From the NCBI GenBank assembly GCA_019058315.1, contig JAHPZH010000002.1:736001-800000 (forward strand): a DNA stretch of 64,000 nucleotides. Reading direction: 5' to 3'. This document shows, piece after piece, positions 47,832-60,656 of the stretch (within the stretch, counting starts at the first letter, position 1; every line of letters starts with the position of its first letter). This stretch comes from Candidatus Helarchaeota archaeon. Lineage in GTDB: Archaea > Asgardarchaeota > Lokiarchaeia > Helarchaeales > RDOG01. The notes under the pieces were generated by a model, which did no database searches, was not told where the DNA came from, and saw only the letters and a program-made list of their open reading frames with translations. The translations under genes and the position numbers were made by a program.

Positions 47832-47847
47832 TACGAAAAAATATGTA
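47832..47847. promoter_or_regulatory. Putative operator TACG-N8-TGTA upstream of the regulator
   Basis: One of three TAC-N10-GTA copies; followed by a TATA-like TTTATTTA about 26 nt before the regulator ATG. Confidence 0.65.
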
Positions 47848-47891
47848 TTGTATTAAATTTTATTTACTAAGTTTAAGTATAAGGTCTAATT

Positions 47892-48701
47892 ATGAACGAA
47901 GAATATTTAGATGAATTATTTGGCATCTTACATTCATCAATAAGATTACATATTATTAATTTATTAATAAATGAAAAATCAGAACTCAGATTTAATGAAA
48001 TATCTAAGTTATTAAATATAAATCCATCAACTTTAGAAAACCATTTGAAAAAATTATTATCTCTCGGATTAATAACTCATGAAAATGAAAAATATTATAA
48101 AGCAAACTTAAATTCGGAAATTATATGGTTTCTAATTAATAAATTTCAACAAATAAAAAATAATTCTTATTTTAGCAATCATAGAATTGCCGAATTAAAT
48201 TCGGAGTTATTAAATACTTTCTTGGATCTCAAATTTGAAATATTAAATAATGGTATTTCAATTGCTTCTCAATTCATTGATGATTTTAAGAAATCTAGTG
48301 AAATTCTAAAAATAGGGGGGGCAATTGATTTAGAGTTTGAAGAGAATTTCATGAAAATTATTAATCTTAATTTTAAAAATACCAAAATTGAGATTATTCT
48401 TTCCGAAAAAAATGCTAGTAATTTTTTAAGATTAAAAAATGAAAATTTAATCTTTAGAGATGTTCCTAATTCAAAAATTTCTGTATATATTACTACTAAT
48501 CCTAATTTGTATTTAATGATTCTAGCAAATTCAGGATTCCTATTTTTTCCTGATTTAAATTTCAAATTAGATTATGAAAATTGCCTATATATGAAAACAA
48601 ACAATGGAGTTAATTGGCTACTTAAACTTTTTAATTATTTAAAGCAAAAATCGAAATTAATCTCACTGGATATACAACAAGATATCAAGAATAAGATTTG
48701 A
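47892..48701 (+). CDS. ArsR-like winged-helix transcriptional regulator with a DUF1724-like C-terminal domain
   Basis: LHSSIRLHIINLL...FNEISKLLNINPSTLENHLKKL..LGLI; C-terminal LFFPD..LDY...NWLLKLFNY. Confidence 0.8.
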   Translation: MNEEYLDELFGILHSSIRLHIINLLINEKSELRFNEISKLLNINPSTLENHLKKLLSLGLITHENEKYYKANLNSEIIWFLINKFQQIKNNSYFSNHRIAELNSELLNTFLDLKFEILNNGISIASQFIDDFKKSSEILKIGGAIDLEFEENFMKIINLNFKNTKIEIILSEKNASNFLRLKNENLIFRDVPNSKISVYITTNPNLYLMILANSGFLFFPDLNFKLDYENCLYMKTNNGVNWLLKLFNYLKQKSKLISLDIQQDIKNKI

Positions 48702-48826
48702 AAGCACTCAATAAATTGTGTTTATCTTTGGTCCATATCCACGAAAAAATCTTCAAATCTTAGTATTTTAAGATAGAAGTAAATTAGCAAATATTTCTTA
48801 ACCTTTAAACAATATTTTCAATAAAA

Positions 48827-48842
48827 TACTAATTTTTTCGTA
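48827..48842. promoter_or_regulatory. Putative operator TACT-N8-CGTA upstream of flotillin
   Basis: Reverse complement GTACGAAAAAATTAGTATTTTATT matches the other two copies. Confidence 0.6.
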
Positions 48843-48969
48843 CAGCATGAATTAAATAAAAATATACTCTGATTTTAAAAATTAAATTTAAATTTGATAA
48901 TTTTGTATGTTTTTAACAATTAAAAAGGGAAGTAATCTTCCCAAATGGGAAAAACAGAGTTAGAAAAAA

Positions 48970-57439: not shown

Positions 57440-57705
57440 CCCTCTAAAATTTTTATTTATTACAATATAAAAATCTCTAAATGTTCAAAAATTAATTGAT
57501 TTAATTTTAAAAATTAATTTAATAACAATTCAAGAGAAAATATTCTTTTAAACCTTATTATTTTAGAAAATTCTGAGAGAATAATATAACCATGTAATAA
57601 ATTTTGTATAATAGTGTATTTTTAAACACAAATGGGATTTGAAATAACAAATTTTTCAAAAAATTAAATAGTTTACTAATGAAATAATAATTTGGAAATG
57701 ATATA

Positions 57706-59172
57706 ATGAAAATAAAACGAAAAAGAATAACTAGATCTAAAATTGTATGCACGATTGGACCTGCAACTAAATCAGAAGATATATTAAAGAAACTAATTGA
57801 AGCAGGTATGAATGTTGCAAGATTAAATTTATCCCATGGAACTCATAAAGAACATGCTGAATTATTTGAAAGAATTAGGGCTTTATCCGATAAAATAGCA
57901 ATAATGTTTGATATACAAGGCCCTAAAATACGTTTAGGAAAAATGAAAGATGATCTAAAATATAGCTTAAAAATGGGAGACCTATTTACATTAACATCAA
58001 GAAATATCGAAGGAAATGGAGATATTTCATCGATTACATATAAGAAATTACCTTCTGATGTGAAAATAGGCGATTTATTATATGTCAATGACGGGATAAT
58101 ATGCTTAAAAGTTTTGGAAATAAATAATAATACTGATATTAAATGCAAAGTTCTTACAGGAGGAGAAATTTCAAGTCATAAAGGAATTAATGCACCAAAT
58201 GTGACAATTACCGAGACTGTACCGACTGAACAAGACATCGAAAATTTGAAATTTATCGCTAAATTAAATTCTGATTATGTAGCTGCTTCTTTCGTTACAA
58301 ATGCAGATAATGTGATTAGAATAAAGCAAATACTTGAAAATTCAAATGCAGATATCCCTATAATTAGTAAAATTGAACGTCCTGGTGCTATTAAAAATTT
58401 TGATGCTATATTAAAGGTTTCGAATGGAATAATGGTAGCAAGAGGAGATCTTGGTGTGGAAATGCAGAGCGAAAATGTTCCTATTCTACAAAAGGAAATA
58501 ATTAGAAAATGTAATAAAATTGGGAAACCAGTCATTTGCGCAACCCAAATGCTTGATAGTATGCAATATAAACCAACTCCTACTAGAGCAGAAGCTAGTG
58601 ATGTCTTCAATGCGATATTAGATGGAGCAGATTCTGTTATGCTTTCCGGCGAAACTGCCATAGGAAAATATCCATTGGAAGCAGTTAAAATGATGGAAAA
58701 GATAATAATAAATGCCGAAAATTCCATGCCTCCTGTTGATTTATATAAATATGATTCAATAAATCCATCTAATGCAGAAATACTTAGTCATGCTGGAATG
58801 GTGATTTTAAGAGAAATTGATCGTCATAGACGGGCACAATTGGATGCGATTATAGTAATTACACGTTCTGGATATACGGCTCGGATGATTTCTAAGTATA
58901 GACCTAATGCACCGATTTTTGCGGTAACATATGATAAAAATACGTATAGACGTTTATTTCTCTTATGGGGAGTTGAAGCAATATATTTACCCCAAACCCC
59001 TAGCTTGCATACTATTACACGAGAAGCTATAAAAAAAGTGTATGAAGAAGGTTATATAGAACTTGATGATACAATATTAATTTCATCTGGTTCTGATTTG
59101 GTACCTCTAATTAAAACAACTTCTATTAGCCTTTTTAATGTGAACGACATTCTGACTAATGAAAATTCTTAA
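57706..59172 (+). CDS. pyk: Pyruvate kinase
   Basis: KIVCTIGPA, ARLNLSHG, DIQGPKIR, MVARGDLGVE, ATQMLDSM, MLSGETA. Confidence 0.97.
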   Translation: MKIKRKRITRSKIVCTIGPATKSEDILKKLIEAGMNVARLNLSHGTHKEHAELFERIRALSDKIAIMFDIQGPKIRLGKMKDDLKYSLKMGDLFTLTSRNIEGNGDISSITYKKLPSDVKIGDLLYVNDGIICLKVLEINNNTDIKCKVLTGGEISSHKGINAPNVTITETVPTEQDIENLKFIAKLNSDYVAASFVTNADNVIRIKQILENSNADIPIISKIERPGAIKNFDAILKVSNGIMVARGDLGVEMQSENVPILQKEIIRKCNKIGKPVICATQMLDSMQYKPTPTRAEASDVFNAILDGADSVMLSGETAIGKYPLEAVKMMEKIIINAENSMPPVDLYKYDSINPSNAEILSHAGMVILREIDRHRRAQLDAIIVITRSGYTARMISKYRPNAPIFAVTYDKNTYRRLFLLWGVEAIYLPQTPSLHTITREAIKKVYEEGYIELDDTILISSGSDLVPLIKTTSISLFNVNDILTNENS

Positions 59173-59239
59173 TTTTTTACAAACTTTTAAAATAATAATT
59201 AAAGAAATTTATAAGTTCTCTTAAAAGTGTCTAAATTAA

Positions 59240-60412
59240 CTAAGAAAATCTTAGAATAAATGCAAGTTCTTCTTCACCAATATATCCTATTATGTTATTT
59301 TCTCGACCCCTAACAATAACTATCTTTGGATGTGTCGTTATTTGATTGATTTTTTTCCAAACTTCAAGACCGCTTTTATTATAATCTATTGATGGAAATT
59401 CGTCTATATCTCTCATTATACTTTTCGCGTTCTTCAAATGAGATTCTTCTACATTAACGTTCTTGATGTCTGTAAAATGAATAATTCCTATAATCTTTCC
59501 ATCTATTCCAACAGGGAAATATCCCTTTTTGTATTTTATAAAATAATTATTAATCAAATTTTCGAGAGACATATCTTGGGGAATTATTAATTCAAATTCA
59601 TGTAAAAGTTCACCAGCAGTAATTTTCGATAGCTTTACCTGAAGAATTGTCTGTAAATAAGCTGATTGGGCGGATGATCTTAAAAAGGATCCGATAATAA
59701 TTAACCAAATACCATTTATTAGACCAAAAAAGAAAATTTCTAAAAATCCGAATCCTATAAATAAAAAACCAAAAACTTGACCAACTTTTGAAGCAGTTTC
59801 TGTTGCTGATATATGATCTTTTCTAATTTTCCATATTAATGCTCTTAATAATCGGCCTCCATCCATTGGAAAAGCTGGCAAAAGATTAAATGCACCAAGT
59901 ATCAGATTTGACCAAGCAGAATAAAAAATAGTAGCATCTAAAATTAATCGAGCAGGGTTAAAGAGTCCTTTATTAAAATTGATAAACGTAGAATAGAAAT
60001 TAGGATATAAAAATTCATTAAAAGTGTCGCCCATGATAAACATCAATAGGAAGAAAAACCCACCTAGTAATAAACTTGAAAGGGGTCCTACAAAAGTAAT
60101 AAGAGCTTCCTCCTTAGGACTTTTAGGTTCTTCTTCAATTTTAGAGACTCCCCCAAACAAATATAACTCAATTTCAGATATAGGTAACCCAAATTTTAAT
60201 GCTGTCAAGGAATGTATTAGTTCATGAATAATTATTGAAAATAGAATTATTAATCCATTTATTATTCCAATTATAATCAATTGCCAAAGAGGTGCCATTC
60301 CTAAGGTTAATTGATAATAAAATGATGAGACTATATATCCTACCATTAAAACAATTAATAATGTTGAAAAATGTATAATAATCTGTATGCCTTTAATTTT
60401 AGCTAATTTCAA
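59240..60412 (-). CDS. Site-2 protease (M50) with C-terminal CBS domains
   Basis: HELIH, LFGGVS, GP, FNLLPAFPMDGGR; CBS-like C-terminus. Confidence 0.9.
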   Translation of the reverse strand: MKLAKIKGIQIIIHFSTLLIVLMVGYIVSSFYYQLTLGMAPLWQLIIIGIINGLIILFSIIIHELIHSLTALKFGLPISEIELYLFGGVSKIEEEPKSPKEEALITFVGPLSSLLLGGFFFLLMFIMGDTFNEFLYPNFYSTFINFNKGLFNPARLILDATIFYSAWSNLILGAFNLLPAFPMDGGRLLRALIWKIRKDHISATETASKVGQVFGFLFIGFGFLEIFFFGLINGIWLIIIGSFLRSSAQSAYLQTILQVKLSKITAGELLHEFELIIPQDMSLENLINNYFIKYKKGYFPVGIDGKIIGIIHFTDIKNVNVEESHLKNAKSIMRDIDEFPSIDYNKSGLEVWKKINQITTHPKIVIVRGRENNIIGYIGEEELAFILRFS

Positions 60413-60479
60413 AAAAATCTCTCCTCAAATTTTATAAATATTTATATATTCTGAATCTCATTAAATTAATTCTCATAGG

Positions 60480-60656
60480 CTAATCATATAACCAGAATAT
60501 GTACAAAATTGTTGCTATATCATATATATCAGTTTGTGCTTTATTATAGAAGTATATTCCTATTATTCCTACAATAACAGCGATTATAATAATTATAGAT
60601 CCTAAAATTAATGGTCTTTTCCAGTTATCCACAATCCTCTGATCTTGATCACTCAT
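60480..60656 (-). CDS. 58-aa single-pass membrane protein (below the ORF-track cutoff)
   Basis: Manual translation MSDQDQRIVDNWKRPLILGSIIIIIAVIVGIIGIYFYNKAQTDIYDIATILYIFWLYD*. Confidence 0.6.
   Translation of the reverse strand: MSDQDQRIVDNWKRPLILGSIIIIIAVIVGIIGIYFYNKAQTDIYDIATILYIFWLYD

Follow-up and report, generated by a model that had tools for sequence, protein, structure and literature searches.

The closest described systems to the locus presented here are certain archaeal regulators, the SPFH-NfeD operons and a stress regulon of Bacillus subtilis. The locus occupies 47.8-60.7 kb of a 64,000-nucleotide stretch (hereafter the window; G+C about 30%) on a 1.4 Mb contig of a Candidatus Helarchaeota archaeon, whose genome assembly of 5.79 Mb is 94% complete, and contains a winged helix-turn-helix (wHTH) regulator, a flotillin gene and short repeated sequences that are predicted to be operators of the regulator. 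Among the autoregulated, divergently arranged regulators of the ArsR/SmtB type, the nearest are archaeal proteins of about 270 amino acids (aa) that combine HTH_5 with a FilR1_middle/HVO_A0114-like domain. The SPFH-NfeD operons, such as YuaF-FloT, YqiJ-YqiK, QmcA-YbbJ and PH1510-PH1511, constitute a widespread operon type, of which the flotillin-NfeD pair of the window is an ordinary member (PMC11222466). The sigma-W regulon of B. subtilis holds yuaF-floT, yqeZ-yqfA and ydbST, and its RsiW is cleaved by PrsW first and RasP second (PMC3498285), facts that were quoted correctly in a preliminary description of the window, which had proposed an archaeal proteolytic module of the same kind.

In common with the ArsR/SmtB-type regulators, the locus features an N-terminal HTH_5 domain, a predicted operator in the form of a 7-2-7 dyad located in the promoter region shared with a divergent target, and a copy of that operator before the regulator's own gene. 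It differs from them in its conserved partner, a methyltransferase of the PEMT/ICMT families (a pairing that one literature search aimed at it did not turn up), in the predicted spread of the operator to four promoters in this genome, and, with regard to the archaeal HTH_5 and FilR1_middle group, in a C-terminal domain that scores under the Pfam cut-off for FilR1_middle. Like the SPFH-NfeD operons, the locus places a Band_7 protein beside a membrane partner that carries an NfeD OB domain in its C-terminal part, a pair conserved across the class, and it departs from them in the long His/Asp-rich repeat loop of the NfeD partner and in a C-terminal zinc ribbon found only in the window and in one relative, G006. 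The likeness to sigma-W appears to be one of regulon content only, namely two SPFH operons (one with NfeD) and a PH-like membrane protein under one predicted regulator, and not of the proteolytic switch: the locus lacks both a sigma and an anti-sigma factor, its wHTH regulator is soluble, PrsW and M50 have neither an operator nor a conserved linkage, and the PH-like protein falls outside PF03703.

Regulator family and predicted operator

We consider it probable that the window holds a genome-special regulon, with a binding site for the wHTH regulator common to its own gene and to flotillin-type scaffold genes, and that the nearby proteases and proton pump are unrelated to it. In this regulon, the wHTH regulator probably co-ordinates the flotillin-NfeD pair, a PH-fold membrane protein and an ICMT-family methyltransferase, because a predicted operator is common to these targets and the same operator is conserved beside homologues of the regulator. 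From their sequences, the regulator and its predicted operator can be assigned to the autoregulated ArsR-type class as a new member.

The regulator matches HTH_5 well above the Pfam cut-off (Table 1) and NF033788 at 34.6 bits, under that model's cut-off of 55, and its translation includes no predicted transmembrane (TM) segment. FilR1_middle scores about 17 bits in the window protein and 17.3, 19.4 and 21.0 bits in three homologues, all under the Pfam cut-off of 27, and the Atlas neighbours of the regulator are archaeal HTH_5/FilR1_middle regulators, part of them with PF08350. A search of 160 other genomes of the class yielded homologues at 12 loci in 11 genomes, spanning seven genera and two families, with 29-35% identity to the window protein. 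Across these 12 homologues and the window protein, the presumed recognition helix PSTLE(N/Y)H.K is kept in all 13 regulators, and H63, H97, E150, E167 and D227 are invariant in the alignment.

Every one of the 12 homologues is divergently paired with a PEMT/ICMT methyltransferase gene, and at 10 loci a palindrome of the TACGAAA-NN-TTTCGTA type lies between the two genes (six perfect, four with one or two mismatches). In G021, G063 and G081, the three genomes with a perfect copy that were scanned whole, the perfect palindrome (TACGAAAAATTTCGTA) at the regulator is the single perfect copy genome-wide. Additionally, a four-TM protein of about 152 aa follows the methyltransferase at seven of the 12 loci. 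In no relative examined does the wHTH regulator stand beside flotillin.

In the window genome (G000, whose contigs carry C-prefixed labels, C5 being the contig of the window), a genome-wide scan with the core motif TACGAAAA-N5-GTA returned nine copies in 5.79 Mb, five inside long open reading frames (ORFs) and four intergenic, and all four intergenic copies fall within 21.5 kb (C5:783832-805292). The three exact copies in the window (op1 to op3; Table 1) are far beyond chance and precede the wHTH gene, flotillin, and the divergent pair of the ICMT gene and a 240-aa membrane protein gene. The common palindrome reported in the preliminary description thus stands for these promoters and falls away for others, with no exact copy before PrsW, the H+-ATPase, pyk or M50. 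A match with one mismatch at 60745, upstream of a 58-aa ORF, is within chance, with 1.8 matches at no more than one mismatch expected per window, and a fourth exact match to a longer pattern (C3:364610) lies inside a 493-aa ORF and was likewise taken as chance.

The copies extend beyond the dyad. In an ungapped scan of the genome with the 50-nt module of op3, op4 matched at 43 of 50 positions and op1 at 39, the next best sequence reaching 34, and a module of about 50 nucleotides (nt) is accordingly common to op1, op3 and op4. At op1 the dyad abuts a TATA-like element, and in op3 and op4 a second such element, TTATAAATT, follows after about 25 nt. The orientation of op2 is inverted relative to flotillin. 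Within the op2 module (48765-48842) the TATA-like part faces the 3' end of the wHTH gene, and an antisense transcript is therefore possible, instead of or besides an action on flotillin. Since the homologue loci carry the conserved palindrome by the regulator, the window motif can be read as a version of the regulator family's conserved operator in which the left half-site is kept and the right one is degenerate. A motif search of the relatives' flotillin loci and of the loci of the 240-aa family found no operator.

Based on these observations, a course of rewiring can be outlined. The 269-aa regulator, as a dimer, would probably bind the dyad, the ancestral form of which would be TACGAAA-NN-TTTCGTA, and the regulator-operator pair would at first have been dedicated to the divergent PEMT/ICMT membrane methyltransferase. 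In the lineage of the window the regulator would have been uncoupled from this old partner, and an operator-promoter module, consisting of TACGAAAA-N5-GTA followed by a TATA-like sequence, would have been copied to new promoters. Its four copies would serve four targets: the regulator's own gene, the flotillin-NfeD operon, the divergent methyltransferase/PH-fold pair, and a second SPFH operon divergent from CorA. A ligand of the C-terminal domain would then switch membrane-scaffold and membrane-modification genes together, with the regulator acting as either repressor or activator.

Genes behind the predicted operator copies

The genes named in the preliminary description are all present in the window (Table 1), and its family assignments were upheld by profile hidden Markov models (HMMs) for the wHTH regulator, flotillin, PEMT/ICMT, PrsW, the H+-ATPase, pyk and M50 with CBS domains, while NfeD was upheld by structure only and bPH_2 gave way to a PH-like fold outside that family.

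Table 1. Positions of the features discussed, in window coordinates unless another label is given
Feature	Position	Strand	Details
op1, operator copy TACGAAAAAATATGTA	47832..47847	+	45 nt upstream of wHTH start
Regulator, ArsR-type wHTH with putative FilR1-middle/HVO_A0114-like C-terminal domain, 269 aa	47892..48701	+	HTH_5 (PF01022) 39.8 bits, cut-off 22
op2, operator copy, reverse orientation	48827..48842	-	128 nt upstream of flotillin start
Flotillin, SPFH/Band_7 with EA-rich coiled coil, 436 aa	48970..50280	+	Band_7 (PF01145) 99.9 bits, E=2e-28
NfeD-like partner, 285 aa	50384..51241	+	Structure model and Foldseek
PEMT/ICMT-family membrane methyltransferase, 224 aa, divergent from 240-aa gene	51286..51960	-	PEMT 26.1 bits, cut-off 25
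op3, operator copy TACGAAAATAAGCGTA	52091..52106	+	Between ICMT and 240-aa genes, 131 nt and 119 nt from the respective starts
240-aa membrane protein, 4-5 TM helices and C-terminal PH-like domain	52225..52947	+	Model and Foldseek
119-aa soluble ORF	53034..53393	+	No family or relatives detected; same strand as 240-aa gene
PrsW-family intramembrane protease, 272 aa	53453..54271	+	PF13367 28.1 bits, cut-off 23.5
216-aa membrane protein, after H+-ATPase	54282..54932	-	
P-type IIIA H+-ATPase	54986..57439	-	TIGR01647, 1092 bits
Pyruvate kinase (pyk)	57706..59172	+	HMM-supported; 69% identical paralogue on C1
M50 site-2 protease with CBS domains	59240..60412	-	PF02163 E=7e-24
58-aa single-pass ORF	60480..60656	-	
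op4, fourth operator copy, 5.3 kb past the window end	L088:5292-5307 = C5:805292		78 nt upstream of second SPFH gene
Second SPFH (stomatin-like) gene, Band_7, 272 aa	L088:5385-6203		Followed by a class-I SAM methyltransferase, then a PNPOx-like gene
CorA	L088:4030-5094		Divergent from second SPFH gene, op4 between

Searches of 40 relatives returned flotillin orthologues with 64-81% identity in 24 of them and three more sequences at 37-50%. To survey gene neighbourhoods, 62 loci were sampled from relatives (20 of flotillin, 29 of the PH-like 240-aa family and 13 of M50). At the flotillin loci, an NfeD-like gene adjoins flotillin in 18 of 20, the other two being cut by contig ends, and no other gene of the cluster occurs within about 10 kb. 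In 15 loci NfeD comes first and flotillin second, and three loci, like the window, have the reverse order. Side features of the flotillin gene include three tandem 45-nt (15-aa) repeats at the C-terminus (50102-50251; ETLPITPEELKNKHA), with alignments to relatives ending at about residue 375, and a perfect hairpin with a 6-bp stem, GGGAAG-TAAT-CTTCCC, at 48927-48942, which precedes the flotillin start by 28 nt and is presumably part of the 5' leader.

The Pfam model for NfeD (PF01957), applied to the 285-aa protein and 13 homologues, matched one of the 14 sequences at E=0.16, and YqiJ_N gave weak matches in five of 14. HMM and profile searches against PDB sequences returned nothing significant for either the NfeD-like or the 240-aa family, and structure prediction was therefore needed for both proteins. 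The AlphaFold model of the NfeD-like protein, computed from the alignment with its homologues, consists of three TM helices, a disordered His/Asp-rich loop (residues 35-117) and a five-stranded barrel, i.e. an OB domain (residues about 190-250). The top five Foldseek matches of the model are all C-terminal domains of NfeD proteins: 3cp0, E. coli YbbJ in its QmcA complex (8z5g), B. subtilis YuaF (2k14), 3wwv and 2k5h, with 3cp0 giving a TM-score of 0.86 and a root-mean-square deviation of 1.3 A. We accept the 285-aa protein as NfeD-like, judged by the modelled structure and not by HMM. The loop between TM1 and TM2 (window 50480-50720; L010-L028 ORFs) is a hypervariable low-complexity repeat, (H-x-D-H)n or (D-x-D-x)n depending on the genome, and the positive-inside rule makes a cytoplasmic location probable.

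The methyltransferase of the window passes the PEMT cut-off (Table 1), and further scores 21.2 bits for ICMT and 37.5 bits for NF040696, the latter below its cut-off. At least nine genes of the PEMT/ICMT families occur in this genome, and two of them, C8:38846-39454 and C5:1048639-1049229, are orthologues of the regulator's conserved partner, with 59-65% identity to the relatives' genes. The window ICMT gene was rejected as an orthologue of that partner, with about 31% identity over 78 aa against the 59-65% of these two genes. The C8 gene encodes a 203-aa methyltransferase and stands with a 152-aa four-TM companion (C8:38846-39946; L098) without regulator or operator, and upstream of it we found no operator, merely a shared TATA-like stretch. 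This unit has the appearance of the operon that the regulator family originally targeted.

No Pfam family matched the 240-aa protein at E<=0.01, and PF03703 (bPH_2) misses the 240-aa genes genome-wide even at E<=10, the same search detecting a genuine bPH_2 gene elsewhere (C5:1244978). The model of the 240-aa protein (pLDDT 75) forms a seven-stranded sandwich, with strands at residues 155-217, and a capping helix at 220-235, and its best Foldseek matches are 3dcx, 3hsa and 3b77, the founding structures of the bacterial PH type (probability 0.93-0.99, E 0.02-0.07). Because PF03703 misses the protein and the model best matches bacterial PH structures, it is assigned, from the model, a PH-like fold outside the bPH_2 family. 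The family is found in Asgard and Planctomycetota genomes and occurs as tandem pairs in many Asgard genomes; in the 29 loci surveyed, the only recurring neighbour from the cluster is a tandem copy of the 240-aa gene itself. In the window a paralogue without an operator lies at 34448-35167 (68-70% identical), and a Helarchaeota homologue is 80% identical to this copy and 70% identical to the operator-linked one, so that the latter, from these identities, looks like a recent, lineage-special duplicate.

Right-hand neighbours

That the stretch consists of two unrelated things, the regulon at 47.8-53 kb and ordinary neighbours to its right, seems to us rather likely. On this reading, PrsW, the 216-aa protein, the H+-ATPase, pyk, M50-CBS and the 58-aa ORF are ordinary neighbours with no operator and no conserved linkage. 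Left of the analysed region there is an operon for an A-type ATPase. An Rfam scan of 46.0-62.5 kb found no RNA. Paralogues of the cluster genes are scattered across six contigs.

The PF13367 match of PrsW covers profile positions 2-100 only, which is half of the profile, and the translation contains the motifs EExxK (FIEELMK), FH and HxxxD (HIVID). The protein query found no match in the 40 relatives; with the Pfam model, the family was detected in two of them, on contigs other than that of flotillin, and a metagenome scan with PrsW found no relative. A paralogue with 48% identity (C9:145529-146341; L097:7527-8342) has genes for an aminotransferase and an MFS transporter and a fragment of an AMP-binding gene as its neighbours, and the 119-aa ORF is unrelated to the ORFs beside it. 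M50 shows the motifs HELIH and NLLPAFPMDGG, and a search with it at E<=1e-20 gave no match in the order to which the window genome belongs. In the 13 M50 loci of relatives, a P-type H+-ATPase occurs at two, within 1 kb in one case and at a distance of 8.6 kb in the other, and one locus has an adjacent member of the 240-aa family. In G022 (L070:4188-8751) an M50-CBS protease gene is grouped co-directionally with a universal-stress-protein-like gene and one for a P-type H+-ATPase (58% identity). Such an arrangement, present in one or two of the 13 loci, may be what is left of a linkage between ATPase and S2P. Neither the 58-aa ORF nor any other small ORF matched a family, and no anti-sigma-like substrate was recognisable.

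Alternative explanations and meaning

Several points weigh against the genome-special regulon. The regulon and its operators are predictions from sequence, and the right half-site is degenerate in this genome, with GTA alone kept, so that binding is possibly weak or differently arranged. Further, op2 points away from flotillin, the window regulator is just 29-35% identical to the homologues with perfect operators, and the window ICMT is not an orthologue of the partner methyltransferase, whose C8 orthologue has no operator. The similarity of op1, op3 and op4 over about 50 nt could stem from recent duplication of promoter DNA and not from selection for a common site. Taken to its end, that thought makes the four modules leftovers of local promoter or segment duplication with no working operator among them, and leaves flotillin-NfeD as the sole functional unit. 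The genome is indeed large (5.8 Mb against 3-4 Mb in relatives) with paralogues for most cluster genes, the likeness of op1, op3 and op4 runs about 35 nt past the dyad, and the right half-site is degenerate. We nevertheless hold this to be unlikely, as the best-conserved part of the four copies is TACGAAA(A) plus GTA, which is also palindromic by the homologues at 10 of 12 distant loci, all four intergenic copies lie in promoter regions with none in other intergenic DNA, and one copy precedes the regulator gene itself. The co-directional 240-aa, 119-aa and PrsW genes, separated by gaps of 87 and 60 nt, also count against a clean division of the stretch, since with such small gaps PrsW may still be co-transcribed from op3. 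A broader version of the regulon, with two SPFH scaffolds, a His-rich NfeD, the PH-fold protein, PEMT/ICMT and CorA rewired into a membrane-microdomain response that converges on sigma-W, and with PrsW perhaps co-transcribed, is one that we entertain only tentatively.

The signal to which the genome-special regulon would respond could be a divalent metal, with the regulon serving metal or cation homeostasis and the metal sensed through conserved His, Glu and Asp residues. The ArsR/SmtB-type HTH, the five residues invariant in 13 regulators, the (H-x-D-H)n or (D-x-D)n loops of NfeD in all relatives, the sharing of op4 with CorA, and the membership of CzcN, an ICMT-family protein, in the czc cluster for Cd/Zn/Co resistance of Cupriavidus (PMC7563307) are all consistent with such a role. 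We regard this refinement as quite doubtful: all of these points are circumstantial, the regulator contains a single Cys and lacks any recognised metal-site motif of the ArsR/SmtB type, the invariant residues could have a structural role, acidic or His-rich loops also occur as plain disordered linkers, and CzcN itself has no known function. An archaeal counterpart of sigma-W, as put forward in the preliminary description, would have PrsW (site 1) and M50 (site 2) destroy a membrane-bound inhibitor, such as the 58-aa or the PH-fold protein, and so induce flotillin, NfeD and bPH effectors in a manner coupled to proton pumps. The window does encode members of both protease families, their catalytic motifs intact, the B. 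subtilis regulon holds the same kinds of effectors, and the PrsW gene shares its strand with the operator-linked 240-aa gene, which it follows at 0.5 kb. Even so, such a cascade is very improbable here. Across the 62 loci of relatives only flotillin and NfeD stay together, and with the neighbourhood unconserved the outcome is the one that the preliminary description had itself named as speaking against its proposal. The PrsW family, present in two of 40 relatives, is never on flotillin's contig, M50 is missing from the window's own order at the threshold given above, no operator precedes PrsW, M50 or the ATPase, pyk divides the halves, the 58-aa ORF has no anti-sigma-like domain, and the wHTH regulator is soluble, lacking any membrane tether that could be released. 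The clustered PrsW and S2P module coupled to proton pumps was hence abandoned, whereas the idea of co-regulated effectors survives in a reduced form, with the wHTH regulator, flotillin-NfeD, the PH-fold protein and ICMT, and without a proteolytic switch.

To our knowledge, Asgard archaea offer few characterised pairs of a transcription factor and its operator. The more exciting claim of an archaeal proteolytic cascade resembling that of sigma-W is removed as unsupported, and the genome-special regulon leaves a clean prediction: a 16-bp palindrome, a conserved methyltransferase partner, and one genome in which the site would have spread to flotillin-type genes. This prediction offers a route into the control of archaeal SPFH/NfeD systems, and the locus may serve as an example of how a regulon would grow through the copying of promoter modules.

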